64,000 bases of DNA from Gammaproteobacteria bacterium (GTDB taxonomy: Bacteria; Pseudomonadota; Gammaproteobacteria; Xanthomonadales; Wenzhouxiangellaceae): positions 47,787 through 111,786 of the forward strand of contig JAHJQV010000018.1 in NCBI GenBank assembly GCA_018819105.1, given 5' to 3'. Shown here in pieces: positions 9,853 to 47,684 of this stretch. The position numbers and the translations under genes are program-made. The notes under the pieces are model-generated. The model was given only the letters and a program-made list of their open reading frames with translations, was not told the origin of the DNA and did not search any database. The first letter of the stretch is position 1. Each line of letters opens with the position of its first letter.

Positions 9853-11112
9853 TCAGAGCACGCTGGAGGGATTGGCCAGCAGGTCACCGTCGTGCACATC
9901 GCGCTCGCCATCCATGATCAGCGCATAACTGACCCTGGCATAGCTGCGATAGACCATAACCCGGGCGACGTATTCATCCGGCAGTTGCACATTGACCTCG
10001 CGACTGGTGCCGAACACACGGCGGAAGCTGCCCGGCGCACCGCGCACCGGATCGGCGATTTCCTCGCCGGGATTCATCACGGCAAACACGTGGCCGGCAG
10101 CAACGCCATCTTCGGCACCGATGTTGAGCATGACGATGTCATTGTGTGCCGCAGTCGGGCCGACATCGAGGATGCCCATGACCCGGGCACCGCTGGGGAC
10201 CGCGTCCATCGTCTTGGGATGAAAGAATTCCTCGTAGGCGTAATCTTCCAGCGGCAGAATAAAGTCACCCTGCCTGACTTCGCGCTTGCCGCTTTCTATT
10301 TCCAGAATCGACACCTCACCACCGCGCAATACCGTGGCGGTAGCTACCTCAAACAATTCGTGGCCGATGATTTCGCGATCCTTGCCGTCGATTTGCTTCA
10401 GCTGCCGCCATAACATGGAGTCGCGGCGGTATTCCGGCCGATAGGTACGACCTGGGAAATCGGGCTGCTTGTACTGGCGGATGTAGTCATCGCCGGCACG
10501 GCGCTCACCGTGGCTGTGCTCATGAAAGGCGGTCTGATAGACCATGCGGTGGCGGGCGATCACCACCGGGGTGCCCGCCCCGACCTGCAGGCCGCGTACA
10601 TAGACTTTATCACCTGGCGTGCCAAGGATGGCCTGTTCCTCGTTGGCCACCACGTACGGCAAACGCTCCATGTCCTCGTCACTGACCAGCCTTGGCCAGC
10701 GCAGAAAACCGCGCAGTGCATCCAGCGGAATGGCGCTGAGCGGCTCCTCGCCCACCACGCGAATCTGTGGCGAACGCCGCACCACCTGTAGCACCGGCCG
10801 GCCATTGAGGTAGCTCAGATTGAGCACATCGCCGGGATAGATCAGGTGCGGGTTTTCAATCTGCGGATTGGCCTGCCAGATCGCCGGCCATTCCCATGGC
10901 CGGATCAGAAAGCGGCTGGCCAGATCCCACAATGTGTCGCCTGGCTGCACCACATATTCCTGCGGATGATCGCTGCGCAGCATGGCCTCACCATCCTGGG
11001 CCTGCGTCAACTGGGCCGGCAACAGGCATGCCAGCAGCAGCGCGCTCAGCAGCAGCCATACCTGACCTTGCAGCAGGCGGGGGGAAACAGCGGTGGCGGA
11101 TTGTATGTTCAT
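9853..11112 (-). CDS. LysM peptidoglycan-binding protein (TsaP-like position)
   Basis: Signal peptide followed by a LysM motif (YVVQPGDTLWDLASRFL...IYPGDVL). Its conserved location between dprA and def is where TsaP-type LysM proteins sit in other proteobacteria. Confidence 0.7.
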   Translation of the reverse strand: MNIQSATAVSPRLLQGQVWLLLSALLLACLLPAQLTQAQDGEAMLRSDHPQEYVVQPGDTLWDLASRFLIRPWEWPAIWQANPQIENPHLIYPGDVLNLSYLNGRPVLQVVRRSPQIRVVGEEPLSAIPLDALRGFLRWPRLVSDEDMERLPYVVANEEQAILGTPGDKVYVRGLQVGAGTPVVIARHRMVYQTAFHEHSHGERRAGDDYIRQYKQPDFPGRTYRPEYRRDSMLWRQLKQIDGKDREIIGHELFEVATATVLRGGEVSILEIESGKREVRQGDFILPLEDYAYEEFFHPKTMDAVPSGARVMGILDVGPTAAHNDIVMLNIGAEDGVAAGHVFAVMNPGEEIADPVRGAPGSFRRVFGTSREVNVQLPDEYVARVMVYRSYARVSYALIMDGERDVHDGDLLANPSSVL

Positions 11113-30589: not shown

Positions 30590-31993
30590 ATGGAACTTTT
30601 TGCGCTCTTGACAAGTGATCACAAGCCCACCGCAAAGCTGCTGACAGCAATACTGTTCTGGCTGTCGCTGCTGGCGGGGCTGCCGTGCGCGGCACAGCCG
30701 GCTGATGCGGTCTCCACATCGGCTGTGAATCCTGCCACAACGCTAGCCGCCGGGCCAATGCCAGGCTACAGCACCGCGCAGGAAGCGGCGGTGTGGGTAC
30801 AGACCCGCGAGGCTGCCAGCGTGCAACTGCTGTACTGGCCGGAAGGCAGGGAGCAGCAGAGCTCGCGCAGTGCCAGCGTACAGACCAGACCGGATCGCGC
30901 CAACACCGCCACCCTGACCGCCAGCAATCTGCTGCCCGGCACACGTTATCACTACCGCATCGTGGTCAATGGCGAGTTGCTGCCAGCCACGCATTCCCAG
31001 CACTTCAACAGCCAGTCACTGCTGCATGAAGGCTTGGCTGATTTCAGCTTCGCACTGGGCTCCTGCGCCAAGGTCAACGCGCCACCTTTCGATGCACCCA
31101 ACTACCGCAACGGTGGGGATTACCAGATCTTCGACGCCATCGCCGAGCAGCAGCCGGATTTCATGCTGTGGCTGGGCGACAACGCCTATTACCTGCCGCC
31201 CGACACCAGTTCTGCTTCCGGCATGTACGGCCGCTACAGCCAGGTCCGGCAATTGCCCGAGCTACAGCGACTGCTCAGCAGCACGCATCACTACGCCATC
31301 TGGGACGATCACGACTACGGCCCGAACAACTCCGACCGCAGCTTCGGTCTGCGTGACATCAGCAAGCAGGTGTTTCACAGTTTCTGGGCCAACCCGGTGC
31401 GCGATGCTGCCGGCAGCGGTGGCATCAGCAGCACGTTTGAGTGGCAGGATGCGGCGTTTTTCCTGCTCGACAACCGCAGCCACCGGCGCGCCAATTTGCG
31501 CGTCACCGGCCAGCGTCAGATACTGGGCCCGCAGCAGCTGGACTGGCTGATCAACGCGCTGTCAAACTCGCTGGCCACGTTCAAGTTCATCGTCATCGGC
31601 GGCCAGGTGCTCAACAGTGGTGAAGTGTTTGAAAACCATATCAACATTGCCCCCGGCGAACGCCGGGAACTGCTCGACCGCATCGCCGCCGAACGCATCC
31701 CCGGCGTAGTCATACTCAGCGGCGACCGGCACCACTCGGCCATGCACATCATGCCCCGCTACGAACAGTATCCACTGCACGAATGGACCGTGTCACCACT
31801 GACCGCCAAAGCCTACAGCCCGGTGCGCGGCGAAGGCCAGTACATCGTTGATGACAGCATCTACACCGAACGCAATTTCGGCGTTATCAGGATCAGCGGC
31901 CCTGCCGAACGTCGCCGCCTGCAGATGATCCTGCACGACGCCAATGGCCGCGAGGTGTGGTCTACCCGGATTGATGCCGAGGAACTGCAGTGA
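30590..31993 (+). CDS. PhoD-like alkaline phosphatase / phosphodiesterase
   Basis: Signal peptide followed by metallophosphatase motifs typical of PhoD (FSFALGSCAK, FMLWLGDNAYY, AIWDDHDYGPNN, ILSGDRHHS). Confidence 0.85.
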   Translation: MELFALLTSDHKPTAKLLTAILFWLSLLAGLPCAAQPADAVSTSAVNPATTLAAGPMPGYSTAQEAAVWVQTREAASVQLLYWPEGREQQSSRSASVQTRPDRANTATLTASNLLPGTRYHYRIVVNGELLPATHSQHFNSQSLLHEGLADFSFALGSCAKVNAPPFDAPNYRNGGDYQIFDAIAEQQPDFMLWLGDNAYYLPPDTSSASGMYGRYSQVRQLPELQRLLSSTHHYAIWDDHDYGPNNSDRSFGLRDISKQVFHSFWANPVRDAAGSGGISSTFEWQDAAFFLLDNRSHRRANLRVTGQRQILGPQQLDWLINALSNSLATFKFIVIGGQVLNSGEVFENHINIAPGERRELLDRIAAERIPGVVILSGDRHHSAMHIMPRYEQYPLHEWTVSPLTAKAYSPVRGEGQYIVDDSIYTERNFGVIRISGPAERRRLQMILHDANGREVWSTRIDAEELQ

Positions 31994-32003
31994 GGCGGCA
32001 TGT
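31796..32003. repeat. left copy of a 208-bp direct repeat (3' end of the PhoD-like gene plus 10 nt)
   Basis: Identical to 42399-42606 except one synonymous difference (t at 31885 vs c at 42488). Offset is 10,603 bp. Confidence 0.9.
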
Positions 32004-32139: not shown

Positions 32140-34191
32140 TTATTCTGTTTCGAAGCTGTCCGCAAACAGAGCGACAATGTCAATGTCGGTGCTCTGATTA
32201 TTGGTCGGATTGCGGTCGGGTAATCCATCAGGCAGAGCGACGCTGACCGTATTCAGTACGGTTTCTGATTCATCGGCAATTGCGGTCACAGTCAGTTCGA
32301 TCAGCACCTGTCCAAAAACCCCCAGGTCTACACTGGTCTGGATATCGCCAGTGCCGCTGTTTATGCTGCATGCGGACGTTGCGTCTGCGGTACATATCCA
32401 ACTCGCGGTCTTACGGTCAAGTGTTGCAGGCAACAGGTCGGTCACAGTGACGGCTTCTACTGCCACCGGGGTCAAATTCTGAACGCTGATGTCATAAGTG
32501 GTCGATTCATCTGGAGTAACATATATCTTCTGATTGGATTTGGTGACCGCAATGTCCAGAGATGGGATGCCGAATACTACGTATGCTTCCCCTGCGTCGT
32601 CCAAACCATTGCGATCGGCATTGATGGTGCTGATGAGCAGGTCTTCACGGCCATCTCCGTTTAAATCGCCTGCCGCATTGACCTGCTCACCAGAGCGATC
32701 CTGGACCATAACGCCGTTCATCTGCATGCCGTTAACGGCGTCCACGCCGGGCTGATCGAACTGGCTGAGCTCGATCACCTGCTGTCCAGCGTTGGGTGGA
32801 CCACCAAACAGTACATAACTGATACCACTCTCGGTAAGGCTGGTATCGCCACGTGAGGCAGCGACCAGTACGTCATCAAAACCGTCACCATTGAAATCGC
32901 CTGCCGGGCTGATGGCGTTGCCAGCGAAATCAAACATTGCAGCACCATTTACATGCACACCAGAGGTGGCCGCCATTGAGCTGCCGTTCAGTTCGGCAAG
33001 ATGAATGCTTGCTGGCAGGTTGCTGCTACCAAACACTATGCTGGCACGACCGCTACTGATGCCATTAATACTGGCAAAAGTTTCACCAATCGCAAAATCG
33101 TTGACACCATCGGCATTGAAGTCGCCCACTGCACCAACCGATTCAAAGCAGGGATGGGCACAAACAATGGTGGCGCCGGTGACCGCCTGCATGCCTGAAC
33201 CATTGAGCTCGGCCAGATCAATGGCATCGGGCAACGTAGCGGAACCGTACACCAGATAATTGAAAAATTCACTCTGACTGTTTGTGCTGTTGGCGATCAG
33301 GATGTCATCGATTGCATCGCCGTTGACATCGCCCACACCACGCACCCGCCCGCCGATACGTTCATTGTCGTTAAAGCCGTTGATCCGGACACCCGCTGCA
33401 GCGTTGGCTCCAACACCGTTCAAATCCATCAGCTCAACAATGGCCGGCAGGCTGCCGTCGTCCTGGCCATACAGGATTATCACCTGGCCGCGATTGCTGC
33501 CGCCGGGTTCGATATCGGCATTGACCACGCCGATCAGCAGGTCGTCGACGCCGTCGTCATTGATATCACCCGCGCCATCAATGGAAAAGCTGGATTGGTC
33601 AATGGCCGCTGCGCCGCGAATGGTGATGCCCGGCGTCGAGTTGGGCCCGGTTCCATTGAGATCTGACAACTCAATGGAGGCTGGGAAGCCAGCATCATCG
33701 CGACCGAAGATCACGTAGGTTTCTCCGGCACCGGAAAATGTGCCGGTGAACGCGATCGGCGCACTCAGCACCAGATCGTCGATGCCATCGCCGTTGATAT
33801 CTCCGGCCGCCGCGATTTCCCGCCCGGTCAGGCTGCCGCCCGATACGCCCAGGATGGTCAGGCCCAGCGTACCGTCAAAATCAGCTGCTGAAAGCGTCTC
33901 GGGAAAACCACCCTGACGACCAAACAGCACAAACGCAGCACCGCTGTCGTTGCCGTTAGTATCATCGCCGGGCAGGCCGATGGCAACGTCGTCAAAGCCA
34001 TCGGCATTGATATCGCCGATGCCGCTGAGACCGGCACCCAGATTGGCAAACACAGTGTTGCCGGGAAACGTTATCCCGGCCAGACTACCGGCAGTATTCA
34101 GCTCGGCCAGTTCGACGACTTGCGGCAGTTCTTGAGCATGCACAGGGGCTAGCATGAGCGCCAATACGGCAAGCCAGCCTCTGTTGGCCAT
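32140..34191 (-). CDS. secreted FG-GAP (integrin-alpha-like) seven-blade beta-propeller protein with a C-terminal DUF11-type domain
   Basis: Signal peptide MANRGWLAVLALMLAPVHA. Seven GD(I/V/F/L)NxDGxDD(L/V/F/I) calcium-loop repeats. A DUF11-like region LDIAVTKSNQ...NNQSTDIDI. Ends ...VALFADSFETE. Confidence 0.8.
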   Translation of the reverse strand: MANRGWLAVLALMLAPVHAQELPQVVELAELNTAGSLAGITFPGNTVFANLGAGLSGIGDINADGFDDVAIGLPGDDTNGNDSGAAFVLFGRQGGFPETLSAADFDGTLGLTILGVSGGSLTGREIAAAGDINGDGIDDLVLSAPIAFTGTFSGAGETYVIFGRDDAGFPASIELSDLNGTGPNSTPGITIRGAAAIDQSSFSIDGAGDINDDGVDDLLIGVVNADIEPGGSNRGQVIILYGQDDGSLPAIVELMDLNGVGANAAAGVRINGFNDNERIGGRVRGVGDVNGDAIDDILIANSTNSQSEFFNYLVYGSATLPDAIDLAELNGSGMQAVTGATIVCAHPCFESVGAVGDFNADGVNDFAIGETFASINGISSGRASIVFGSSNLPASIHLAELNGSSMAATSGVHVNGAAMFDFAGNAISPAGDFNGDGFDDVLVAASRGDTSLTESGISYVLFGGPPNAGQQVIELSQFDQPGVDAVNGMQMNGVMVQDRSGEQVNAAGDLNGDGREDLLISTINADRNGLDDAGEAYVVFGIPSLDIAVTKSNQKIYVTPDESTTYDISVQNLTPVAVEAVTVTDLLPATLDRKTASWICTADATSACSINSGTGDIQTSVDLGVFGQVLIELTVTAIADESETVLNTVSVALPDGLPDRNPTNNQSTDIDIVALFADSFETE

Positions 34192-34263
34192 AGCCCCAGC
34201 AGCGTTTATGGAGTCAGTGAAAAACAGCATGTGAATCCTCGTTCTTGATTAGTCTTTTCGCAG

Positions 34264-36747
34264 TTATTCAAAGCCGTCAAAAAACACGATGCCACTGGTG
34301 CCAACCAGGGGAACAGATGTGTCATTGCTCAGAGAGACTGAGTTGGATCGAATCCGAAGCTCGCTTGTTACGATGCCGGGCTGAAACGGAGTGAATTGCA
34401 GGTCGACCGTACAGCTGCCTTGCGCCGGTACTGGTTGAGTGCAACCATTACTGGCGACGGCAAACTGAGTGTTGATTGCGATAACAAACGCTATTTCCAA
34501 AGGTCGGCTACCGGTATTGGTCAACGTCAAAGCTTCTATCGGGCTGGTTACGTCGACCGGCGTGTCCTGAAACTGAATGCTGCCCGGGCTTGCATTCAGC
34601 TCGGCGCCTGTGATCGGATTGGCGAATACCGGAATGGTCAGCGGTGAATCAGGAGTGTCCACGCTAATCGTCACCTCTGGCGTTTGGGACATTGATATGA
34701 ACTCATCGGTTTCCAGAATGACGGTCACCTCGCAGCTATCGCCGGCTAGCAATTGCAGGTCGCAGTCGCTCTCAACGGTAGTCGATGAAGAGCTCTCACT
34801 GATTTCCAGAATGTGCAATATCCCTGGTCCATTGCTTTCAATAGTTATAGTTCGGCTCTCATCCTCATTCGCCGGTTCAACGATATAAGTGCCAAAGTTA
34901 AATGCGAGAGGCGAGATTGAGATGCTCGGTTCCGGGCTGACCTCAATCGCTCCAATATCGGTCATTCCGTTGAACGTACGCGGAAACGTAAAACCGCGTT
35001 GATCACTGATCTCACTGTTGGGATTGTCCCCGGAATCCAGTACCACGCTGCCGGTATCGGGCATATAGGTTTGCGGACATTCTTCCTCACCAGGGAAGCC
35101 TGCGGTCATGAAGCAACCGTTGTCATCGAGCGAATCGAATGCCGGGCCGTCACTAAAAATATTGTCGACATTATTGCCGTTTATTTCAGTACTCGCGTCG
35201 CCGAATACAGATTGAATTACGTTAACCACATGGCCAAGGACATCGTTTTCAAGTAAAAAATTATCATCGAGGTTGTCGGCAAGCACGGTGCTGATGAGTG
35301 TTAGCTCCGCCATACTCATGGCAAGCTCCGGGCTGTAAAAAATGCCACCAGCATGGCCGCCGGCCTGATTGTCGATAACGGTGGAATTACTGATCATCAA
35401 GCCCTGGCTATCGCCGGAATAATACAAGGCACCGCCATTTGACTGTATGCCCGATGCCTCATTACCAGTGATGGTTGAATTGCGGATATCCAGATCGCCG
35501 GTCACCCACAGACCGCCGCCATGTGCTGCCCCCGCGTTGGTGGAGTTGAACGCCACGGTAGAATTAGCCAGCAGCAGGTTACCGGCGGCGATTGCACCAC
35601 CATGGTGACCATTACCGTTGGTTTGGTTGTTCCGCAGGATATTGCTGTCGGTCAATTCGATATTGGGGCCATAAATGGCACCACCGGGCGCTATGCAGTT
35701 GTTGCTTTCGAAGATACTCTGGCTGATGAAGACCACATTGTCTGTGGCAATAGCGCCACCGCCGGTATTCTGACAACGGTTACCGGAAAATCGACCTCTG
35801 GTAATTTCTGCATCGCAATCGGCACCAATAAAGACCGCACCACCAGCGCTGGTCGCGTCATTATCAACGAAGTCAAGACCATCAAGGTCAATGTTGTCAC
35901 CAATAGTACAGCCCGATGATGCAAACGCGCCGCCGAAACTCGCAGAGTTCTCAAAAAAGAGTGTTCCGCCACCTCCAGGTCCAAATCCAACAATGCTTTC
36001 GTATTGTCTGGCAAATATCGCCCCACCCATCGAGGACGGGCCAGCGGCACTGTTGCCAGAGAAAATCAGTCGAGGGCCTCCACTGGTTGTCAGCCTGCCC
36101 TGTTCAACATAAATCGCGCCCCCGTGTGCTTCCTGACCCTGGGTCGAATTGTTGGTAATCGCACTGATGATGCCGGAGGGTCTGATCGATACGTTACCGG
36201 TGCCGCCGATATACATGGCACCGCCATGGGCGCCATCACCCATCGTGGTGTTTCCATTCATTAGTAGATTTCTCAGCGTCAGCCTGCCCAGCGTGCACAC
36301 TGCACCACCTTGACCCGTGCCGGGAGCACAAGTCGCGGGCTCACTGCCGTTGGCCGTGGTCATACCATCCAAGAAAGCGACGTTCTCGAGCGCCAACAAG
36401 CTATCCGGGTTAGTGACAACCAGAATTCTGGAATTGTTGCTGGCGTCCAATGCAACCCGTGAAGCGGGCCCCTCAATGGTGACAAAATTGTCAGTCGTAA
36501 GCTCCAGGGGACCTGTAGTGATACTGATGAAATCGATGGATTCAGCGAAAGTGATTTCGACTTCATTGCTGCTGGCATTTGCCATTGCCACGGCATCGCG
36601 CAGGCTGCCGGGGCCGGCATTGTTGCTGTTGGTGACGACAAATTCATCGGTCTGTCCAGCATGGATGCTGCTGGAAACAAGCAACAGCAAGCTGCATAGA
36701 CATATTGGTAGATGGCAGTAGAGTGCCATGCTGTGAGGTCTCATCAT
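34264..36747 (-). CDS. secreted right-handed beta-helix protein (Pmp-like GGAI repeats) with two choice-of-anchor-D / ASH-like Ig domains
   Basis: Signal peptide MMRPHSMALYCHLPICLCSLLLLVSSSIHA. NAGPGSLRDAVAMAN start motif and many GGA(I/M/V)(Y/F) repeats. C-terminal Ig-like segments (ISISPLAFNFGT..., LNASPGSIQFQDTPV...). Ends ...GIVFFDGFE. AGGA lies 9 nt upstream of the ATG. Confidence 0.75.
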   Translation of the reverse strand: MMRPHSMALYCHLPICLCSLLLLVSSSIHAGQTDEFVVTNSNNAGPGSLRDAVAMANASSNEVEITFAESIDFISITTGPLELTTDNFVTIEGPASRVALDASNNSRILVVTNPDSLLALENVAFLDGMTTANGSEPATCAPGTGQGGAVCTLGRLTLRNLLMNGNTTMGDGAHGGAMYIGGTGNVSIRPSGIISAITNNSTQGQEAHGGAIYVEQGRLTTSGGPRLIFSGNSAAGPSSMGGAIFARQYESIVGFGPGGGGTLFFENSASFGGAFASSGCTIGDNIDLDGLDFVDNDATSAGGAVFIGADCDAEITRGRFSGNRCQNTGGGAIATDNVVFISQSIFESNNCIAPGGAIYGPNIELTDSNILRNNQTNGNGHHGGAIAAGNLLLANSTVAFNSTNAGAAHGGGLWVTGDLDIRNSTITGNEASGIQSNGGALYYSGDSQGLMISNSTVIDNQAGGHAGGIFYSPELAMSMAELTLISTVLADNLDDNFLLENDVLGHVVNVIQSVFGDASTEINGNNVDNIFSDGPAFDSLDDNGCFMTAGFPGEEECPQTYMPDTGSVVLDSGDNPNSEISDQRGFTFPRTFNGMTDIGAIEVSPEPSISISPLAFNFGTYIVEPANEDESRTITIESNGPGILHILEISESSSSTTVESDCDLQLLAGDSCEVTVILETDEFISMSQTPEVTISVDTPDSPLTIPVFANPITGAELNASPGSIQFQDTPVDVTSPIEALTLTNTGSRPLEIAFVIAINTQFAVASNGCTQPVPAQGSCTVDLQFTPFQPGIVTSELRIRSNSVSLSNDTSVPLVGTSGIVFFDGFE

Positions 36748-36762
36748 CGTTGGTATCCTGTT

Positions 36763-38925
36763 TTATTCAAAGCCATCTTTGAATACTTCATTGGCTTGAA
36801 GGAAAATGCCACCGACTTGCTGATCATCGATGAGTTGCAGTGAGCAGCTCTGACCGCTGCAGGCACCGATGAAATTCTGAAAAGTCGCGCCGGCATCGGG
36901 CGTGGGCGTCAGGGTGATACTGGTGTTGCCGGGGTAGCTGGCCGAGCAGGTGCCGGGGCAATTGATGGTGCCGGTGTTGTCGGCGATGCTGCCAGGGCCA
37001 GTCACCGTGATGCTCAGTACCGGGTCGTTTTCGATCAGCACAAACTGGGCGGTGGCGCCGCCATTCATGTTCAGTGTGGCGTTACACACCGGACCGCTGC
37101 TGGCTGAGCAGACACCGCCCCAGAGGTTGAACTGGCTGCCGGGTTCCGGCGTGGCGGTCAGCGTGATGCTGGTACCCGGCGGGTAGTCCTGCTGGCAGTC
37201 GCCCGGACAGTTGATGCCCAGTGGATTACTGGTGACGCTGCCAGCTGCACCGCCGGGCGTGTCAAGCAAAATGGTCAGCGTCACCGGCTGCAGATCAAAG
37301 TTGGCGGTGACACTGCGCATTTGATCCATGGTCACAGCACAGGCACCCATGCCGGAGCAATCGCCGCTCCAGCCAGCAAATACGCTGCCACCGTCGGGAC
37401 TGGGCGTCAGATTGACCATGGTGCCGACCGGATAATCAGCGCTGCATACGCCCGGACAGTTGATGCCGCCTGGATTGCTGCTCAGGCTGCCACTGCCGCT
37501 TCCAGCAATAGTGGTCTGCAGGGTGAAATCATCCACCGGATACTGCAACTCAATCGCACCGGCGTCGCAGAGGCTGCCGCCCATGCCCGGTCCACCGGCG
37601 CGCGGATTACCGACCGCGTCCGGCAATGTGATATCGCAATTGAATCCGGCCTCCATAAAGTCCACCGCCGGGCCATTGCGCAGCGGCAAATAATGGTTGT
37701 CGACTCGAATTGGATCGACAATATTACGGTAGTCATCGCTGAAGGTATCAAACCCATTGATACAGTTGTCCTGCTCATCGAGTACGTTGCCGTCAAACGA
37801 CATGTACGTTTGGGATGGGAAATTGGCGGAGCAGTCAACGCCGACAATGGTGTTGTTCACCAGCCGTCCGTTGCCGTGAATAATGCTGCTTCCATAAGTG
37901 ATGGTGCCGCTGCCGCCGTTGGCTTCCTGCACATGCATGCCGTCACCCAGCGCGCCGCCAGCACAGGCGTTGGCATCGTTTTGTACCAGCGTGCTGCGTA
38001 CCAGTTGCACCAGCACATCCTCGCCCGGGAAACCGGTATTGGCAATTGCCACCACATGAATGCCACCACCCACACGCCCTTCATTGCCGGCAATGGTGGA
38101 ATCGTTGAAAATCGCATAGGCAGCGGTCGGGCTGGTGGCTTCGATACGCAGCGCACCTCCAGTGCCGGCGGTATTGCCGCCACCACCGCGTGAACTGCCA
38201 CATTCGTTTGCGTCGTTATTCAACAGCGCGCTGCGGTTGATGGTCAGCGAGCCATTAAACTGGGCAATTGCACCGCCGCCGGTTTCAGTACTGCTGCTGG
38301 AGGTGCGATTGACCTGCAGCAGGGCATCGGTGATTTCCACCGTGCTGTCATCCAGTCTGAGCGCACCGCCAAAGGCAAACAGTCCTTCTGCGGTATTGCC
38401 GGAAATGCGTATATCGCTGAGTGTCAGATTGGTATCGGTGGCCAATATGGCACCTCCTCCCGACATGGGAAAGGCGGATATGCCGCCGCTCAGGTTCAGG
38501 TTGCTCATGCTGTGTGTACCTGTGTTGAACTCGAGCAGCCGAAACGCTTCGGTGCTGAAATTATCCCGGCTGATGGTTGCGTTTCGACCTTGGACAATGA
38601 CGTCGTCGACGATGACCGGCAGTGCATTATCGGTGCTGCCGTAGGCACTATCGAATTCGTAGTCAAAGTCTTGCGACAGCCGCAGGAAATCGGTGCCATT
38701 GCCCATCGGACAATCGGGATTCATGGCGCTGTCGGTGTTGGCGTTCTCGATGGCTTCGATCAGGCTGCACTGACCATCGGCAATGGCTGGATTGGTTTCC
38801 GGGTCAACCTCGATCAATGCGGCTTTCGCGGGAAGGACTGTCAGCATGAAGCTGAACAGCATCAGATTGATAAGAAGTTTGCTGCAGACACTTGTCAGGC
38901 CAGCATGGTTGGAGGCTCCTGTCAT
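36763..38925 (-). CDS. secreted beta-helix protein (choice-of-anchor-Q-like N-terminus) with three divergent InlB-B-repeat-like modules
   Basis: ORF 36763..39150. The signal-peptide-like start MTGASNHAGLTSVCSKLLINLMLFSFMLTVLPAKA at 38925 was chosen, with no clear SD, so the start is uncertain. DGQCSLIEAIENAN motif and GGAI/GGAL repeats. Three G-x-INCPG-x-C...YP-x-GT...LT-x-P...G-x-CSG modules. Ends ...EVFKDGFE. Confidence 0.7.
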   Translation of the reverse strand: MTGASNHAGLTSVCSKLLINLMLFSFMLTVLPAKAALIEVDPETNPAIADGQCSLIEAIENANTDSAMNPDCPMGNGTDFLRLSQDFDYEFDSAYGSTDNALPVIVDDVIVQGRNATISRDNFSTEAFRLLEFNTGTHSMSNLNLSGGISAFPMSGGGAILATDTNLTLSDIRISGNTAEGLFAFGGALRLDDSTVEITDALLQVNRTSSSSTETGGGAIAQFNGSLTINRSALLNNDANECGSSRGGGGNTAGTGGALRIEATSPTAAYAIFNDSTIAGNEGRVGGGIHVVAIANTGFPGEDVLVQLVRSTLVQNDANACAGGALGDGMHVQEANGGSGTITYGSSIIHGNGRLVNNTIVGVDCSANFPSQTYMSFDGNVLDEQDNCINGFDTFSDDYRNIVDPIRVDNHYLPLRNGPAVDFMEAGFNCDITLPDAVGNPRAGGPGMGGSLCDAGAIELQYPVDDFTLQTTIAGSGSGSLSSNPGGINCPGVCSADYPVGTMVNLTPSPDGGSVFAGWSGDCSGMGACAVTMDQMRSVTANFDLQPVTLTILLDTPGGAAGSVTSNPLGINCPGDCQQDYPPGTSITLTATPEPGSQFNLWGGVCSASSGPVCNATLNMNGGATAQFVLIENDPVLSITVTGPGSIADNTGTINCPGTCSASYPGNTSITLTPTPDAGATFQNFIGACSGQSCSLQLIDDQQVGGIFLQANEVFKDGFE

Positions 38926-39240
38926 GACCGAGCGCGCTGCTGCCACCATGCTGCCCGGCAATGTCGGTTTTGCGCATTTCCTGACGTGACACCAAGCTGC
39001 GCGTCTCTGCTCATTTGCTCTCATCCTTGCTGCCATAGTGACTTCTCTCGTCGTATCCAGTCGTGCCATAGGGCTCAAGCGGCCTTTTACCGAAGCGGGC
39101 TGTGTGTTGCTGCTATGGTTGTTACTGATTAACGCAACAGTTGCGCCCAAAAAGGCTCAAGATGGATTGCGCTGGAACGAAAAAAGTTGGCACGGTGGGA
39201 AACAGACACGCCTTACGGATCAGGGCAGAAGAATTCAATC

Positions 39241-39813
39241 CTATTGCCGGATTTCACGCCTCAGCCAGGTCTTGGCCAACAACCACTGGCGCTTGACAGT
39301 GGCCGGTGAAATATTGAGCGCTTCTGCGGTCTCGTCGATCTTTAGCCCCGCGAAGTAACGGCACTCGACCACCCGCGCCGCGCGGGCATCAATATCGGCC
39401 AGTCTGTTCAAGGCCTCGTCAAGCGCCTCGATATCGACATTCGGCGTCTCGCCAAGGGCAGGGTTGGCAAGAAAAGTATCGGCATGGCTGAGCGTGAGGT
39501 GTTCAGCGCCGTTGCCACGCTTGAGGCGCTTGCGCTGCTTTGCATGGTTGACCAGCACACGGCGCATGATCATAGATGCCACGGCCAGAAAATGCGCCCG
39601 ATCCTGCCAAGATGCGCGATTCTGCTGAGCAAGCCGCAAGTAGGCTTCATTGACCAAGGCCCCGGTATCGAGCGTGTGGCCAGGGCGTTCGCTGCGCAGA
39701 TGACGGCTGGCGGCCAAACGCAACTCGTCATGGATCAGCGGCATGAGTTCATCAAGGGCATTGCGATCGCCTTGTCGAGCGTCCTGGATCAGTTGCGTGA
39801 TGTGACCATTCAT
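39241..39813 (-). CDS. ECF-type RNA polymerase sigma factor, kinase-associated class (TIGR02999 / Sigma70_ECF-like)
   Basis: ITQLIQDARQGDRNALDELMPLIHDELRLAASRHLRSERPGHTLDTGALVNEAYLRL... and region 4 ARVVECRYFAGLKIDETAEALNISPATVKRQW. The ATG overlaps the kinase stop (ATGA at 39810-39813). Confidence 0.9.
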   Translation of the reverse strand: MNGHITQLIQDARQGDRNALDELMPLIHDELRLAASRHLRSERPGHTLDTGALVNEAYLRLAQQNRASWQDRAHFLAVASMIMRRVLVNHAKQRKRLKRGNGAEHLTLSHADTFLANPALGETPNVDIEALDEALNRLADIDARAARVVECRYFAGLKIDETAEALNISPATVKRQWLLAKTWLRREIRQ

Positions 39814-41897
39814 CGCTGGCTGTCGTTGATCTGCTCAAGGCTTTCCCGAGCCTGGGATACAAAGGGATGGTCTTCGCCAAGGGTGTTCGTGGCGATACTC
39901 AGTGCTTTCTGCAGATCGGCCCTGGCGAGCACGAACTCGCCCTGCAGTTCGCGCAACTCAGCGCGGGCGTGAAGCAGAAAGGCAGCATAGGGATGCTGCG
40001 TTCCAAAGGCTCGCTCTACAATCTCAAGAGACGCATCGTAGGCGGTTTCAGCCCGTTCGAGCCGGCCCAGGTCGGTGTAGATCATGCCAAGGTTGTTCCA
40101 GTTCGCCGCCAGATCCTGATCCATATCGGCACCGGGAAGTAAGCGCCTGACCTCAACCACTCGTTCCAGCATCATTGCCGACTCTTCCAGTCTGCCCTGA
40201 TCGCTCAGCGCAATTGCAAGCTGGTTGAGCGCGCTGGCGTGCAAGTCAGGCGTCGCGTTGGAGAGTCCATCCAGCACATCGAGAGCGTCGCGAGCCAGCT
40301 GCTCCGATCGGGCGTAGTTTTCCAGTCGGTATTCGGCCTTGGCCAGCTCAAGAAGACTGCCCGCATGGGATTCGCGATCCGTGCCGCCACGCCGTGAAAT
40401 CTCTACCGCTTCGGCCAGTGCATCGCGGGCGCGGTCATGGTCACCGCGCACTTGCAGCACGCCGCCAACGGCGGTCAGCACCGCGTTTCGCTCGGTGTCG
40501 CTCAGGCTTTCATTCTGGCGCAACCGTTCCAGGCCACGATCAAGCATCTCCGCAGCGGTATAGTCCCGCTCCGCGCGAGTGGGATCAGCCAGGCTAAACA
40601 GATCGGTGAGAAAGTTTGTCGTGGCCTGCGCGCGGTCACGCTCGAGGCTGAGAGCCTTCGACTGTTCGGCAATGCGTGATGCGGTCAGCGAGGCGAACAC
40701 GCCAAAGCCGATGGCGACCAGAAAAAGCGCGGTTGCAAACGAAGCGCTCCAGCGATTGCGGAGCAGGAACTTTCCCGCCCGGTAGGCCAGCGTGTCGGGT
40801 CTGGCCCTTACCGGCTGACCATGCAACCAACGTGTCAGATCGTCGGCGAGCGCTTCGGCGGAGCGATAGCGCCGCTGCGGCTCTGGATGCAGCGCCTGCT
40901 GGCAGATGGTATCCAGATCCCCGCGCAGTTTGCGGCGCAGACCCTCGGCCTTCTCGCCTCTGAGATGCGCGTGCTCGGGGACGACGCATTCCGAGGGTCT
41001 GGGTGGCCTCGGGTCCGATTGTTCTCCATGCAACTCTAATGGTGGTCGCTGGCCGCTCAATAGCTGAAATAGCAGCCTGCCCAATTGATAGACATCGGTG
41101 GCAGTGGTGACCATCCCACCTGACAGTTGCTCCGGGCTGGCGAAGTCTGGTGTAAATAGACCCGTGGCATCGGTCAGGTTATCGTCGGCATGCAATAACT
41201 TGGCGATGCCGAAATCGAGCAGGACCGGCACCCCCTGTGGGGTGACCAGGATATTGGCTGGTTTGATGTCGCGGTGAATCACCAGATTCTGATGCGCGAA
41301 CTGGACAGATTCGCAGATCGGAATCATCAGGCACAGCCGCTCGTCTACCGATAGCTTGTGCGTATCACTGTACTCGTCCACCGCGCTTGCCCCTTCAAGG
41401 TAGTGCATCGCGAACCACGGACGACCATCTCCGGTGACGCCGCCATCCAGTATCGATGCGATATTGGGGTGATTGAGCGCTGCGAGTATCCGTCGTTCGG
41501 CATGAAAACGATTGATAATGGTTTCCGAGTTCATGCCGAGAGCAATGACCTTGATCGCTGCATACTGGGAGAAGTCTTCACCGATGCGCTCGCCCAGGTA
41601 CACGGCGCCCATGCCACCGCGATCAATCCGGCTGCGGATGATCCAGGCACCGAGAGACTCACCAATCAGCGGGTCGTCGCCAAGAGCACTTTCTGGCCCG
41701 ATCGCTACAGTAACCGGCAGTGGCTGTTCAAGGAAGTCCGGATCGGAATCGAATTGCCGGATAAGGGACTCAAGTTCGGCGCGGAACGCCGGATCGCCAT
41801 CGCCAAGTCGCTCAAGCAGGCCTGCACGAACTTCGGATCGGGAGCTGGCAAGCGCATACAACGCTGTTTGCAGCCTTTGCCAAGTATCCTTTTCCAT
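39810..41897 (-). CDS. membrane Ser/Thr protein kinase with a C-terminal TPR domain
   Basis: Hanks kinase motifs RGGMGAVYLG, AIKVI, HRDIKPANIL, DFGIAK. One TM helix (ATALFLVAIGFGVFASL), then about 300 aa of TPR-like repeats. The N-terminal WQRLQTALYALAS...DPAFRAELESLIRQ segment is typical of sigma-linked kinases. Start is 41897 (MEKDTW) or 41936. Confidence 0.9.
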   Translation of the reverse strand: MEKDTWQRLQTALYALASSRSEVRAGLLERLGDGDPAFRAELESLIRQFDSDPDFLEQPLPVTVAIGPESALGDDPLIGESLGAWIIRSRIDRGGMGAVYLGERIGEDFSQYAAIKVIALGMNSETIINRFHAERRILAALNHPNIASILDGGVTGDGRPWFAMHYLEGASAVDEYSDTHKLSVDERLCLMIPICESVQFAHQNLVIHRDIKPANILVTPQGVPVLLDFGIAKLLHADDNLTDATGLFTPDFASPEQLSGGMVTTATDVYQLGRLLFQLLSGQRPPLELHGEQSDPRPPRPSECVVPEHAHLRGEKAEGLRRKLRGDLDTICQQALHPEPQRRYRSAEALADDLTRWLHGQPVRARPDTLAYRAGKFLLRNRWSASFATALFLVAIGFGVFASLTASRIAEQSKALSLERDRAQATTNFLTDLFSLADPTRAERDYTAAEMLDRGLERLRQNESLSDTERNAVLTAVGGVLQVRGDHDRARDALAEAVEISRRGGTDRESHAGSLLELAKAEYRLENYARSEQLARDALDVLDGLSNATPDLHASALNQLAIALSDQGRLEESAMMLERVVEVRRLLPGADMDQDLAANWNNLGMIYTDLGRLERAETAYDASLEIVERAFGTQHPYAAFLLHARAELRELQGEFVLARADLQKALSIATNTLGEDHPFVSQARESLEQINDSQR

Positions 41898-42318
41898 ACG
41901 GCAGCAATAGACCTGACTGTGATGACGCACAATCATTGCAACGATACTGAGTTGGTGTCAAGTCCGATGTCTCTGAATGCACCGTACAACAGTGGCCTTG
42001 AACTGATATCGCATTGGGGAAGACAGGTTTCATCAAATCATTGGCAGCAAAAGCTCTATCCGGGAGGCAGCGGCAAAGCTTGACAACAAGTTTCTGCAGG
42101 GCATCACTACGGCTGAGCGATTGTTCCCGCAGCGGATTTAGCTGAATTCCCACTTATCGACATAATCGGCCTTGGTCGAGGTTTGGCGTGCCTTGCACGT
42201 CGGTTTTACGGCCAGATTGAACCTTTCTGACTGCTATCAGGATAGTTGACTACGTAAATCTGTTGCCGTCAACATTGTTGGGCAATGTATAGGTTTCACT
42301 GCTTGCGGTATGGGTGTC

Positions 42319-42400
42319 CACGACTATCCCACGACTATCCTCCTCCACGACTATCCTCCACGACTATCCTGGGTGTCCACGACTATCCACACGACTATCC
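42319..42400. repeat. array of six direct CACGACTATCC 11-mers
   Basis: Copies at 42319, 42330, 42346, 42359, 42378 and 42390. Two are preceded by tgggtgtc (42311 and 42370). The last copy runs directly into the right 208-bp repeat. A degenerate inverted copy (ggatagttg) sits near 42240. Confidence 0.85.
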
Positions 42401-42596
42401 ACTGACCGCCAAAGCCTACAGCCCGGTGCGCGGCGAAGGCCAGTACATCGTTGATGACAGCATCTACACCGAACGCAATTTCGGCGTCATCAGGATCAGC
42501 GGCCCTGCCGAACGTCGCCGCCTGCAGATGATCCTGCACGACGCCAATGGCCGCGAGGTGTGGTCTACCCGGATTGATGCCGAGGAACTGCAGTGA
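42399..42596 (+). pseudogene. orphan 3' fragment (last 65 codons plus stop) of the PhoD-like gene
   Basis: Encodes PLTAKAYSPVRGEGQYIVDDSIYTERNFGVIRISGPAERRRLQMILHDANGREVWSTRIDAEELQ, identical to the C-terminus of 30590..31993. The track ORF 42285..42596 is only this fragment fused to the 11-mer array. Confidence 0.85.
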
Positions 42597-42606
42597 GGCG
42601 GCATGT
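42399..42606. repeat. right copy of the 208-bp direct repeat
   Basis: See 31796-32003; 207 of 208 identical. Confidence 0.9.
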
Positions 42607-42725
42607 GCTGTCTTTCTGGGTTAGTTGGTCATGCCAGCCTGAAACACAAAATCACCAGGGCTCGGCTTGTTGCAGTCCGAAGCAATAATGTTTAAACTTC
42701 GTCTAAACATACCCTGTATATCGCC

Positions 42726-42980
42726 ATGACCGAAACTGTTCTCGAAATTAAACACTGGGGCAACAACCTCGGCGTGCGGCTGCCTGCCGCCATAGCCCGT
42801 GCTGCAGATCTGCACGCAGATCAACGTGTGCGCATCACCGTGGAGGGCGAGCGCATCATCATTACCCCGCTGCAGGAAGAGCACTTGAGCCTGCAACAAC
42901 GGCTGACCAGATTTGATCCAGATCGGCATGGTGGCGAAGCCATGGCCGAAAGTGGCTATATTGGTGCAGAGCTATGGTAA
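42726..42980 (+). CDS. mazE: MazE/AbrB-fold antitoxin
   Basis: 84 aa. IKHWGNNLGVRLPAAIARAADLHADQRVRITVEGERIIITP is the SpoVT/AbrB swapped-hairpin motif. Overlaps the toxin gene by 7 nt. Confidence 0.85.
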   Translation: MTETVLEIKHWGNNLGVRLPAAIARAADLHADQRVRITVEGERIIITPLQEEHLSLQQRLTRFDPDRHGGEAMAESGYIGAELW

Positions 42981-43348
42981 AAGCCGACAATTGGGTTCCG
43001 CAACGACAGGATGTCATCTGGATTGACTGCAACCCGCAGCGTGGACAAGAAATGCGCGACATACACCCTTTTCTGGTGCTGTCACCTGAAGCCTTCAACC
43101 AGCGCACCTCATTGGTTATAGGTCTGCCGATGACAACTGCATCCTACAACACTGACAACCCTTTCGCCGTGGACGTGGGCGTGGCCAAAGGACGCAAAGC
43201 CGGGCAAGCGAGTTATGTGCTATGCCACCAGCCCAAATCCTTCGACTGGCGTCGTCGTAGAGGCGCGAAACATCCCATGAAAAAATTGAGCGATGCCCGC
43301 TTTGCCGAAGTGCTGACTGTGCTTAACCAGATCATCCAGCTGGCTTGA
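42974..43348 (+). CDS. mazF: MazF/PemK family endoribonuclease toxin
   Basis: 124 aa. PQRQDVIWIDCNPQRGQEMRDIHPFLVLSP...SLVIGLPMTT... is PemK-like. Confidence 0.9.
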   Translation: MVKADNWVPQRQDVIWIDCNPQRGQEMRDIHPFLVLSPEAFNQRTSLVIGLPMTTASYNTDNPFAVDVGVAKGRKAGQASYVLCHQPKSFDWRRRRGAKHPMKKLSDARFAEVLTVLNQIIQLA

Positions 43349-43643
43349 TTGGCAACTCATGAGTGTGCATGCAGCTGGGTTTAGCTGATGTCGGGAGGCT
43401 ACATGCAGCAAGATGCACAATGGTCGATGTATAGATTGTGGCTCTCCAATCCATTCGCTACCTTTGCCGAGCTATCTGTAGCCGTCACGCTTGGCATATT
43501 GTTATCCTCGACTACGCCTGCGACACTCGAAGCGAACGCGTAGGGACTGTAGATAAGTTTGTGTAACCGCCCATTGATATCCTCAGGTGGTTGATTTCGA
43601 CGCCATAACGCCCGGGTTAACCGGGTCCGAGTTGAACCGGTTG

Positions 43644-43853
43644 TCAGGCAACTTCGACGTATTCGACTTGGCTGCTTGGAGGCGGTATTGCCTCGCCGTC
43701 CTCCCTCATACCATCAAGGTGAAATTCAATAGCTTCCCGAATTTGCTGTTCTACCTCCTCGAATGTTGCTCCGGTAGCAACACAGCCCGGCAAGTCCGGG
43801 ACATATGCAGAGTAGTTGCTTATTGCTCTTTCGATAACAATTGCGTACTTCAT
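43644..43853 (-). CDS. hicB: HicB family antitoxin
   Basis: 69 aa. MKYAIVIERAISNYSAYVPDLPGCVATGATFEEVEQQIREAIEFHLDGM is the HicB/UPF0150 fold signature. Confidence 0.85.
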   Translation of the reverse strand: MKYAIVIERAISNYSAYVPDLPGCVATGATFEEVEQQIREAIEFHLDGMREDGEAIPPPSSQVEYVEVA

Positions 43854-43861
43854 AAGCGCAC

Positions 43862-44047
43862 CTATTTCCAGCCGGCCTGCTTGTAAATGCTATCCACGGT
43901 TCCGACAGCCAAATCGTCGCCAGGCTTTCCAGGCACCGTCACCCGGCCCGATCTCGTGGGGTGTTTGAACTGCCGATGACTGCCTCGTGTCGAATAATGA
44001 TACCAGCCATCTTCCTTCAACTTTCGAAGAATATCACGTACTTTCAT
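43862..44047 (-). CDS. hicA: HicA mRNA interferase toxin
   Basis: 61 aa. MKVRDILRKLKEDGWYHYSTRGSHRQFKHP...VTVPGKPGDDLAVGT is the HicA signature. Confidence 0.9.
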   Translation of the reverse strand: MKVRDILRKLKEDGWYHYSTRGSHRQFKHPTRSGRVTVPGKPGDDLAVGTVDSIYKQAGWK

Positions 44048-44404
44048 CTATTCCGAACAGCTCACAGATAGCCCCGAATTTGTTCGCCTAACTTGAACAT
44101 GGTGGATGAAATCGCCGGGTATTGAATATCGGGACAGAAACGCTACTTATGCTTGCGCCGTTACTCAGATCGTGGCTTATCCTGCTGAAATATCGGGCAG
44201 TTTCCATAACTTCTGCCGGCAATCTCTGCCTTTTCCTACGAATATTGTCAACTTTTCCTAGCTTCCGAATCGACACATCCTGATTGACCTGCTCAGCCTC
44301 CCTGCTGGAATGATGCATCATAACCAAAGAAGAGGCAAGTGCAGGCATGGGTGAGAAGCTTCTTGACCGAATGCCTAGGTCGAAGCACCCATCCTTCATA
44401 CTTG

Positions 44405-44569: not shown

Positions 44570-45693
44570 TCAACGCTCACCAATGGCCACCACCTCACGC
44601 TTGTCCGGGCCGATGTAGTCGGCGCTGGGGCGGATGATGCGGTTGTTGTTGCGCTGTTCCATGACGTGGGCGGCCCAGCCGGTGAGTCGCGACATGACGA
44701 AGATCGGTGTGAACAGTTTGGTGGGTATGCCCATGTAGTGGTAGGCTGAGGCGTGGAAGAAGTCGGCGTTGGCGAACAGTTTTTTCTCGTCCCACATGAT
44801 GCGCTCAATGCGGTCGGACACATCAAACAGCAGTTTGTTGCCGGTTTCCTTGGCCAGTTGTCGAGACCATTCCTTGATGATGGCATTGCGGGGATCACGC
44901 TCGCGGTAGACGGCGTGGCCGAAGCCCATGATTTTTTCCTTGGCCTGCAGCATCCGCGCCACGTCCTGTTCGGCCTGCTCCACCGATCTGTACTGTTCCA
45001 GCATGGCCATGGCGGCCTCGTTGGCGCCGCCGTGCAGCGGGCCGCGCAGTGTGCCGATGGCAGCGGTGATGCAGGAATGCAGATCCGACAGCGTGGAAGC
45101 ACACACCCTGGCGGCAAAGGTGGAGGCGTTGAACTCGTGCTCGGCGTACAGGATCAGCGACACATCCATGACCTTGCTGTGCAGTTCGCTGGGGGCCACG
45201 CCGTGCAGCAGACGCAGGAACTGCGCACCGATGCCGTCATCGTCGGTGTCGGTGTCGATGCGCACGTTGTCGTGGCTGTAGCGATACCAGTACAGCAGCA
45301 TGCCCGGCAGCGTTGCCAGCAGCCGGTCGATGTGATCCAGTTGCTGGGCGAAATCGCTTTCTGTTTCCAGGTTGCCCAGCAGCGAGCAGCCGGTGCGCAG
45401 CACGTCCATGGGATGGGCGTCGGCGGGAATCTGCTCCAGCACGGTTTTCAGCGCTTGCGGCAGTGCGCGCAGACCCTGCAGGCGCTTGACGTAGCTGTCC
45501 AGCTCGCTCTGTTTGGGCAATTCGCCACGCAGCAGCAGCCAGGCGACCTCGTTGAAGCTGGCCTGTTCGGCCAGATCGCGCACGTCGTAACCGCGATATC
45601 GCAGGCTGTTGCCGGCCGCGCCGACGGTACAGATGCTGGTTTCGCCAGCCGACTGGCCACGCAGGCCGGCACCGGTGTTCTGCTTGATCATGT

Positions 45694-45697
<4 letters not shown>
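44570..45697 (-). CDS. prpC: 2-methylcitrate synthase
   Basis: 375 aa citrate-synthase family. [16 protein letters not shown]...SLRYRGYDV is typical of PrpC. GFGHAVY catalytic motif. 4-nt overlap with prpB. Confidence 0.9.

Positions 45698-47684
<1,987 letters not shown>

Follow-up and report, generated by a model that had tools for sequence, protein, structure and literature searches.

A PknS/EcfK-type kinase–sigma factor unit with a candidate target promoter and lineage-variable exported cargo in Wenzhouxiangellaceae-like bacteria

In the searchable literature only two kinase–sigma pairs built on an extracytoplasmic function (ECF) sigma factor of class ECF43 have known outputs, one from Xanthomonas citri and one from Vibrio parahaemolyticus. 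PknS of X. citri is a receptor kinase of the transmembrane (TM) type, with periplasmic tetratricopeptide repeats (TPR) and an N-terminal extension of 83 aa; its substrate is the ECF43 sigma factor EcfK, which it phosphorylates at T51 and in the linker, where T106 is critical (PMC13147305). For EcfP of V. parahaemolyticus, the work of Iyer et al. 2020, as related in PMC8999054, places the phosphorylation at the second Thr of an STTA motif that replaces the acidic DAED motif. Here we describe a 64-kb stretch of DNA (contig JAHJQV010000018.1, positions 47,787 to 111,786; hereafter the window) on whose minus strand a kinase gene, a sigma gene and three genes for large exported proteins, called C, B and A, form a five-gene block. 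We consider it likely that this locus represents a PknS/EcfK-type (ECF43) unit of one-step transmembrane signalling, with a target promoter dedicated to it and cargo that can be exchanged. The regulator is of an already known kind, that of Xanthomonas and Vibrio; the cargo is new.

The receptor kinase and its sigma factor

The kinase gene (39810–41897, minus strand, within an open reading frame at 39810–41936) encodes a PknS-type receptor Ser/Thr kinase of 695 aa. Its N-terminal extension of about 80 aa is followed by a Hanks domain at residues 89–351 (Pkinase, 4.1e-32), in which the catalytic motifs are intact (AAIKV113, HRDIKPAN208, DFGIAK228, SPEQ254), by the single hydrophobic segment of the protein, a TM helix at residues 383–406 (nt 40680–40751), and by a C-terminal TPR domain at residues ~425–690, where the Pfam model TPR_12 matches in four stretches (2.3e-31) and TPR_10 matches as well. 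An earlier reading of the window, made from the letters alone (the sequence-only reading), had proposed a membrane-bound Hanks kinase with intact motifs, one TM helix and C-terminal TPR, and all of this is borne out. The best match in the Protein Data Bank (PDB) is 9eed_A, residues 1–364 of X. citri PknS (E 1.1e-49, query residues 5–358); since the alignment starts at residue 5 of our kinase, the N-terminal extension is common to both. By likeness to PknS the TPR domain would be located in the periplasm and may serve as the sensor. Matches to anti-phage kinase systems (PADLOC PD-T4-6, mad6) were rejected, as they are confined to the generic kinase domain (residues ~80–370), and PADLOC gave no match for the sigma factor, C, B or A.

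The sigma gene (39241–39813, minus strand) overlaps the kinase gene in an ATGA, which confirms the translational coupling noted before. Its product of 190 aa exceeds the cut-offs of both family models of this class, PF07638 with 174.5 bits (cut-off 21.1; 2.8e-51) and TIGR02999 with 193.8 bits (cut-off 126.15), in agreement with its earlier assignment to TIGR02999/ECF43. On these sequence matches, membership of the pair in the ECF43/PknS class is well supported. The orthologs of the kinase form a group of 693–696 aa with 51–88% identity, found in several genera, and the pairing with the sigma factor is kept in every ortholog locus examined.

The sequence-only reading had further assumed activation by phosphorylation in the manner of EcfP. 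While the family models do place the sigma factor in the phosphorylation-type class, the EcfP mechanism should not be assumed unchanged, because the canonical acceptor Thr is missing. Region 2.2 reads D49-T50-G51-A52 and follows the pattern DT[GAS]A in all seven orthologs aligned; at the third motif position the residue here is Gly51, and the orthologs have Gly, Ala or Ser. Of the acidic residues of the DAED motif the first, Asp49, is kept and the other two are gone. Thr50 and the linker residue Thr107, which lies within LTL, are invariant in the alignment. One may therefore ask if the kinase is an EcfP-style on-switch at all, or if this sigma subgroup is basally active and the kinase merely tunes it through the linker or has other substrates. 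We regard the latter as possible, though on balance doubtful. DT[GAS]A differs from STTA of EcfP (as given in the account cited above) and from QATE of EcfK, in both of which the third position is phosphorylated; Asp49 restores part of the acidic patch; and EcfK with the exchange T51A is still functional, its linker T106 being critical, to which an invariant Thr107 corresponds here. However, the strict translational coupling of kinase and sigma factor is kept across genera, which argues for a functional partnership, Thr50 directly adjacent to position 51 is invariant, and only one of the three acidic residues has been kept.

A candidate promoter and its exchangeable cargo

Comparison of the regions downstream of orthologous sigma genes yielded a candidate sigma-dependent promoter, TGAGCC-N15-GTTGCGT, which in the window is located at 39159–39132 (minus strand), 81 nt past the sigma stop codon and 95 nt before the ATG of gene C at 39036. 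It is the sole match in the window, even if up to two mismatches are allowed, and one would expect only approximately 0.002 exact matches to the 13 specified bases per 64 kb by chance. The exact motif is present at the equivalent site in the loci L031, L034, L035 (two copies, on the cargo strand), L037, L038, L039 and L040. These loci span at least three genera (L034 is from Thermomonas carbonis, L035 from Sinimarinibacterium flocculans), and the copies at these sites are on the cargo strand and upstream of a gene for an exported protein; in L035 a further copy with one mismatch faces two divergent genes for exported proteins. Two loci were left out of this comparison, L036, which ends 4 nt past the sigma gene, and L041, which is too short. 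In an alignment of seven sequences, the two motif blocks together with a TTT after the first one are the sole invariant stretch.

The motif was missing from C-ortholog loci that have no sigma gene, even with two mismatches allowed at the right place. When metagenomes were scanned with the sigma alignment, L040 and L041 were the only close orthologs found, and the remaining 78 loci, with sigma factors of 45–57% identity, served as negative controls: in their ~470 kb there was no exact copy and one copy with one mismatch. Thus, the motif keeps to the sigma ortholog group irrespective of the cargo, a behaviour expected of a cognate promoter, and the earlier idea that the sigma factor drives the trio is strengthened by this comparative evidence.

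Another explanation would be adjacency without regulation, the trio having a promoter of its own and the motif being the site of some other regulator or the boundary of a mobile unit. In the window the -10 block does overlap a short palindrome, GCAAC-T-GTTGC, and one of the copies in L035 points away from any obvious gene. However, other lineages do not keep the palindrome, while both blocks and their spacing of 15 nt are invariant; the motif goes with the sigma ortholog group and not with the cargo; and its orientation matches the downstream genes for exported proteins, including the divergent pair in L035. Mere adjacency appears improbable to us.

The kinase–sigma operon itself is preceded by a sigma-70-like promoter at 41932–41961 (minus strand; TTGACA-N18-TG-AATGAT, with a score of 10/12 and an extended -10 element), which also backs the kinase start at 41897 chosen in the sequence-only reading. 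The stretch CTTGACA...TTGCAATGATT is kept upstream of the kinase in L031 and L037. No ECF-type motif was found upstream of the kinase; thus the operon is probably not autoregulated, and autoregulation was dismissed in favour of the sigma-70-like promoter. Downstream of the candidate ECF promoter the transcript of the trio would have a conserved 5' leader (39057–39128, minus strand) containing a candidate long-range stem, formed by CAGT/ACTG and CCATAG/CTATGG. In this stem 88% of cells are paired, versus at most 37% with slid partners, and there are five compensatory pairs, in an alignment of only five sequences. The leader is kept also upstream of the non-homologous cargo in L038, and Rfam gave no match in the window or in the leader. 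Apart from this, an exact copy of the promoter motif is located at 9917–9944 (minus strand) of L035, upstream of the Sinimarinibacterium kinase, from where it points away into the 3' end of an acyl-CoA dehydrogenase gene; this outward copy could drive an antisense or small RNA.

The genes behind the sigma gene differ from lineage to lineage. The full trio C-B-A is found in L037 (kinase 88% identical), and in L031, a close relative with a C of 82% identity, C and B are followed by an A cut to 139 aa. In L040 (kinase 76%) there are two proteins of 928 and 767 aa, which end in LFSDRFEP and MFADRFEQ, and in L038 and L039 (kinase 71%) a single PATR beta-helix protein of 720 aa, with the end GIFSNRFEP in L038. 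Sinimarinibacterium flocculans (kinase 63%) has small Cys-rich and larger exported proteins at this place, and Thermomonas carbonis (kinase 58%) a protein of 1090 aa whose glycine-rich C-terminal end resembles a YadA-type anchor by eye. The conserved unit therefore consists of kinase, sigma factor, promoter and leader, and its cargo is swapped between lineages. The trio does not form a fixed system, as more distant units have different exported proteins. In T. carbonis, two kinase/ECF units are adjacent to each other (L034 3596–9821 and 10001–16148) in opposite gene order, each followed by one of two paralogs of ~1100 aa, the upstream one of 1110 aa; these share an identical glycine-rich C-terminal end of 50 aa, and the promoter motif is present in the second unit only.

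We also searched from the side of the cargo. A scan based on an alignment of C orthologs, with one genome per species, gave 20 loci, in which all five window proteins were located by tblastn. The sequence-only reading had proposed that the five genes are one conserved, undescribed envelope system, with the trio as an obligate set under kinase and sigma factor. Indeed the block is found again, complete in the window species and L037 and with the truncated A in L031, in three unrelated chromosomal contexts, so that the refuting outcome named in that reading, a pair and trio never co-conserved, does not apply; an A ortholog lies near C in L019 and a B-like gene adjoins C in L013. This recurrence is, however, limited to close relatives. 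C orthologs of 75% (L011), 65% (L012) and 45–47% identity (L014–L018) have no kinase, sigma factor, A or B within 10 kb, A is cut short in L031, and orthologous kinase–sigma–promoter units carry unrelated cargo. An obligate set is thus unlikely and largely refuted by this survey of neighbourhoods; the entity that is conserved is the kinase–sigma unit.

In six of the C-ortholog loci a ToxR/CadC-like regulator of 770–960 aa (Trans_reg_C, TM, TPR-rich) is encoded near C. These regulators end in 'DWWTPE..' and look like a second, unrelated type of membrane regulator. The positions recorded are L011 16526–18832, L012 13472–15829, L015 12860–15247, L016 12405–14723, L017 12317–14704, L018 3315–5693 and L019 6887–9769. 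The idea that the TPR domains of the kinase and of the ToxR-like proteins are one common sensor that has been swapped was abandoned, as their similarity in BLASTP is generic (best E 7e-5 over 110 aa). In L032, from bin OFTM396, a TIR-STING gene (18933–19925; CAP12-PCTIR_TIR and prok_STING) was seen ~7 kb from the C ortholog, which is probably unrelated defence cargo.

According to the reading that we prefer, the kinase–sigma operon would be transcribed from its own sigma-70-type promoter. The receptor kinase, with extension and kinase domain in the cytoplasm, a TM helix and the TPR domain in the periplasm, would respond to an extracytoplasmic cue and, as we infer, activate the sigma factor by phosphorylation, for which, given Gly51, the invariant linker residue Thr107 and/or Thr50 would be the more likely sites. 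The sigma factor would then guide RNA polymerase to TGAGCC-N15-GTTGCGT, from which the tightly packed operon C-B-A would be transcribed. Its products would be Sec-exported, non-enzymatic repeat proteins, each with a C-terminus of the form [hydrophobic]-F-x-D-[GS]-F-E.

Several points weigh against this reading. The case is built on genome comparison, and the source is an uncultured metagenome bin. The sigma factor is without the Thr that is found in 88% of ECF43 members and keeps Asp49, so that it could have some activity even in the absence of the kinase. With CGT as the core of the -10 element, the distance from TGAGCC becomes 19 nt, more than is usual for ECF promoters, which makes it uncertain what parts of the motif are -35 and -10; in principle, another factor travelling with the unit could bind the motif instead. 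C orthologs stand beside the other regulator type in other genera, from which it follows that the link between C and the sigma factor is evolutionarily recent. Finally, an export route across the outer membrane was not identified, and no secretion gene is present within 10 kb.

The exported proteins and their shared C-terminal tail

Gene C is located at 36763–39036 (open reading frame 36763–39150), gene B at 34264–36747 and gene A at 32140–34230, all on the minus strand, so that the five co-directional genes of the block extend over 32140–41936, as the gene calls bear out. C starts probably at ATG 39036, where a conserved ribosome-binding site, GAGAGAAG, and a conserved N-terminus, MAARMRANEQ, are found; this start gives a protein of 757 aa and matches one gene call, other possible starts being 38949 and 38925. 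The gap between the sigma gene and C then measures 204 nt and not 315 bp as proposed before. B (827 aa) follows C after 15 nt, as had been stated, and has an AGGA ribosome-binding site. A (696 aa) follows B after 33 nt if it starts at ATG 34230, where there is a GAGGA ribosome-binding site; the previous figure of ~72 nt arises only with an internal start of A. By inspection, all three proteins have Sec-type signal peptides. Within 10 kb of the block there is no anti-sigma, secretion or phosphatase gene, in line with the absence of anti-sigma and dedicated secretion genes reported earlier. Metagenome contigs encode identical proteins (JGI 3300023199 and related samples; ENA ERZ27247117 k141_480057), and homologs of C occur in Wenzhouxiangella, in genome bins of Wenzhouxiangellaceae and in other gammaproteobacterial bins, which places the source, an uncultured gammaproteobacterium, near this family.

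Searches with Pfam and NCBIfam profiles left the earlier domain assignments essentially intact, except for the placement of choice-of-anchor Q. C is a right-handed beta-helix followed by three immunoglobulin (Ig)-like domains of the InlB-B-repeat type (Flg_new_2 three times, 3.9e-19), as had been read from the sequence. It had also been assigned to choice-of-anchor Q, but this model (NF041518) matches B at residues 559–603 (27.1 bits, cut-off 25) and not C, for which there is no NCBIfam match and which bears only a related end motif, C-D-x-G-A-x-E. B is, as predicted, a Pmp-like beta-helix with GGAI-type repeats (eleven of them; Chlam_PMP 23.2 bits, cut-off 20.6) and two Ig-like domains, matched by choice_anch_D in two stretches; to this comes the choice-of-anchor Q end. 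A was likewise correctly described as a seven-blade FG-GAP propeller with DUF11: FG-GAP matches with 1.5e-35 and 120.9 bits, there are seven calcium loops of the type D-x-[ND]-x-D-[GA]-x-x-D at a spacing of 69–79 aa, and weak matches to integrin alpha chains point to an integrin-alpha-like propeller. A match of A to XAC2610_fam was set aside as generic FG-GAP/calcium-loop similarity.

AlphaFold2 models agree with these assignments. For C (24 sequences in the alignment) the mean predicted local distance difference test score (pLDDT) is 78.8, with a confident beta-helix at residues 45–370 and three Ig-like modules; for B it is 79.5, with a long beta-helix and two Ig domains of the ASH/HYDIN type. 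In comparisons with the PDB by Foldseek, the Ig part of C matched pilins and adhesins and its helix matched RbtA (9cdv) with a target-normalised TM-score of 0.38–0.43 and 16–17% identity; the matches of B were to ASH/HYDIN-type Ig domains only. Profile and sequence searches of the PDB returned nothing for C or B. An enzymatic nature of C and B was rejected, as epimerase and tailspike matches appeared only at E ~0.008 and with low TM-scores. The structure searches thus gave no convincing enzyme match for either protein, and the statement that there is no recognisable enzymatic domain holds. The autotransporter barrel of the Chlamydia type is missing from B, whose C-terminal part consists of the two Ig-like domains. 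We take the three for binding proteins that are probably exposed at the surface or secreted, and they may act as adhesins or as a surface coat.

All three proteins end in nearly the same way: C in VFKDGFE (36766–36786), B in VFFDGFE (34267–34287) and A in LFADSFETE (32143–32169; all minus strand), each followed directly by the stop codon. Of the full-length homologs of C, almost all carry this tail at their very end, down to an identity of 28%. The B orthologs of at least 40% identity all end in G-[IV]-[IVL]-F-x-[DN]-G-F-E plus 0–1 residue, and A orthologs in LFVDGFEAHD (L019) and LFVDDFEEE (L037). To measure the enrichment, 748 open reading frames of 150 aa or more in the window and the retrieved loci (255,716 residues) were scanned with [LIVMFA]-F-x-[DN]-x-[FL]-[EQD], which gave 26 matches within 12 residues of the C-terminus and 3 elsewhere. 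The tail occurs on at least eight unrelated architectures, including the alternative cargos of L038 and L040, and all cargos in Wenzhouxiangellaceae-like lineages carry it. In the models the last residues of C (the final five) and of B have a pLDDT below 50, which would fit a free linear motif rather than a folded part.

At E <=1 no NCBIfam model matched the tails, that is, no GlyGly-CTERM, PEP-CTERM, IPTL-CTERM, LPXTG or type IX secretion system (T9SS) signal was recognised. No TM segment follows the motif, and a full-text literature search for DGFE-type strings returned only irrelevant papers. Choice-of-anchor domains owe their name to such varying C-terminal anchors; in other phyla, distant homologs of the beta-helix carry at their end a T9SS C-terminal domain, dockerin-like modules or a TM helix followed by basic residues. 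Among 234 neighbouring open reading frames, which were clustered in search of a conserved machinery gene beside tail genes, only the kinase, the sigma factor, the ToxR-like regulator and a giant protein of 1840 aa recur.

Some further observations concern C-termini in these genomes. Genes for tail-bearing proteins often stand in tandem, as three do in L013 (225–6587) and two in L028 (5159–8169); L040 (6536–7738) belongs to this set of observations as well. Some tails are extended, for example FSDRFESNQPRDLRGQL, and acidobacterial homologs bear extensions of the DGFETGDTSRWS type; thus the seven-residue tail may be the core of a longer and more widespread motif. The window also encodes a choice-of-anchor I protein (50155–51747, plus strand, 554 bits) with a TM-type C-terminus that is weakly IPTL-CTERM-like (E 0.033), which suggests that sorting signals of the classical C-terminal kind are in use in this organism too.

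As to its function, the tail would most attractively be read as a signal for sorting or export that is specific to the lineage. More tentatively, one can go further: [hydrophobic]-F-x-[DN]-x-F-[EQD]-COOH may represent a novel signal for sorting or secretion in Wenzhouxiangellaceae-like bacteria and some Xanthomonadales that takes the place of PEP-CTERM, GlyGly-CTERM and T9SS anchors, with the PknS-type unit as a plug-in controller which puts interchangeable tail-bearing exoproteins under one extracytoplasmic signal. We hold this wider picture for speculative. If true, a linear motif for export or sorting on Sec-dependent proteins of a Gram-negative bacterium, recognised perhaps by the type II pathway or by a PDZ or TPR reader in the periplasm, would offer a testable handle on the long-open question of substrate selection; in any case the tail is a cheap and testable candidate sorting signal for large surface or secreted proteins.

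TPR domains are known to bind the C-termini EEVD-COOH and SKL-COOH, and outer-membrane proteins are sensed by DegS through their C-termini. In a similar way, the kinase might use its periplasmic TPR domain to bind the free F-x-D-G-F-E-COOH tails of its own cargo, so that the export load feeds back on expression. All cargos of the Wenzhouxiangellaceae-like lineages have the tail, and both types of regulator found beside tail genes have a periplasmic TPR domain. However, such a feedback is pure inference, the orthologous units of Thermomonas and Sinimarinibacterium (kinases 58–63% identical) have cargo without tails, and the TPR domains of the kinase and the ToxR-like regulators are similar only in a generic way. 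We judge it very unlikely.

Genomic setting and comparison with known systems

The five-gene block is bracketed by direct repeats of 208 nt, which, like the shared tail, had escaped the sequence-only reading. Copy 1 (31796–32003) comprises the 3' end of a PhoD-like gene plus 10 nt and copy 2 (42399–42606) an orphan phoD 3' fragment; the two are identical at 207 of 208 positions. Directly before copy 2 there is a tandem-like array of six 12-mers, CCACGACTATCC (42318–42400), with 0.15 copies expected by chance. In a sister strain (L001, L004) the repeat is present once, the 12-mer array is missing, and a cupin gene is found where the window has toxin-antitoxin genes. The block of this strain lies on the other side of a spacer of ~465 nt, and the B-A part is 82% identical versus 95–96% in the flanks. 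The G+C content of the block, 0.52–0.59, is below that of the surroundings. Together, repeats, rearrangement in the sister strain and low G+C indicate that the block resides in a recombining, flexible region. On a larger scale, prpD (25532–26980) and prpC/prpB (44570–46611) are ~17.6 kb apart, and the interval holds a TonB-dependent-receptor-like gene, the PhoD-like gene, the five-gene block and the toxin-antitoxin genes (MazE/PemK, HicAB; 42621–44050). We see in this interval a flexible island within the methylcitrate cluster. An integrase is missing, and a search for an empty site with the PhoD protein found only the contig of the window itself.

The closest relative among described systems is PknS/EcfK of X. 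citri (PDB 9eed), with which the locus shares the Hanks receptor kinase with an extension of ~80 aa, TM helix and TPR domain, the adjoining ECF43 sigma gene, the lack of an anti-sigma factor and the linker Thr within LTL that corresponds to T106 of EcfK. Unlike PknS, which has 833 aa, the kinase has 695 aa, and its gene precedes the sigma gene with an ATGA overlap; region 2.2 reads DTGA instead of QATE, with no Thr at position 51. The output of PknS/EcfK is a type VI secretion system, whereas here genes for exported repeat proteins follow directly downstream of a promoter defined by genome comparison. To PknT/EcfP of V. parahaemolyticus there is likeness in the ECF43 class, in a sigma factor co-encoded with a Ser/Thr kinase and in an incomplete DAED motif. 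Measured against the same account of EcfP in PMC8999054, however, a Gly stands at the position of the phosphorylated Thr and the first Asp is kept here, and the local regulon would consist of exported beta-helix and propeller proteins instead of polymyxin resistance.

The ToxR/CadC-like regulators of Wenzhouxiangellaceae (Trans_reg_C-TM-TPR), which are one-component membrane regulators, resemble the kinase in having a TPR-rich C-terminus and in being encoded beside genes for tail-bearing exported proteins. They differ in an output domain of unrelated kind, a winged helix that binds DNA directly, in a TPR part that is not specifically similar and in the lack of TGAGCC-N15-GTTGCGT. With regard to the cargo, the N-terminal domain of C finds its best beta-helix match in RbtA (9cdv), and both helices end in a motif of the G-A-I-E type. 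RbtA presumably carries a GlyGly-CTERM rhombosortase signal, whereas C ends in VFKDGFE, has no TM segment and contains three InlB-B repeats, and there is no match at the sequence level. RbtA, Rhombotarget A of Acinetobacter baumannii, is a cell-surface protein and is listed among the type II secretion substrates (PMC12643943). B exceeds the cut-offs for choice_anch_D, choice_anch_Q and Pmp repeats and in this is like the choice-of-anchor proteins of Haft and the Pmp proteins of Chlamydia; unlike these, it has no autotransporter barrel or known sorting domain, and a tail of 7–9 residues occupies the position of the anchor.

In the searchable literature type VI secretion and polymyxin resistance are the only ECF43 outputs found and exported repeat proteins do not appear among them, which agrees with the earlier statement that no system with such an output had been described. 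The target promoter of this subgroup could be read from comparative genomics, which opens the way to reporter constructs in the cultured Thermomonas carbonis and Sinimarinibacterium flocculans. A sigma factor without the canonical phospho-threonine puts the generality of the EcfP mechanism to the test and fits the linker-phosphosite model of EcfK. The regulator is pictured best as a conserved unit with exchangeable exported cargo. Summarizing, what had been taken for an undescribed envelope system is reduced to a unit of the PknS/EcfK type with lineage-variable exported cargo, and it is the promoter motif, the non-canonical region 2.2, the organisation as an exchangeable unit and the shared C-terminal tail that are new.

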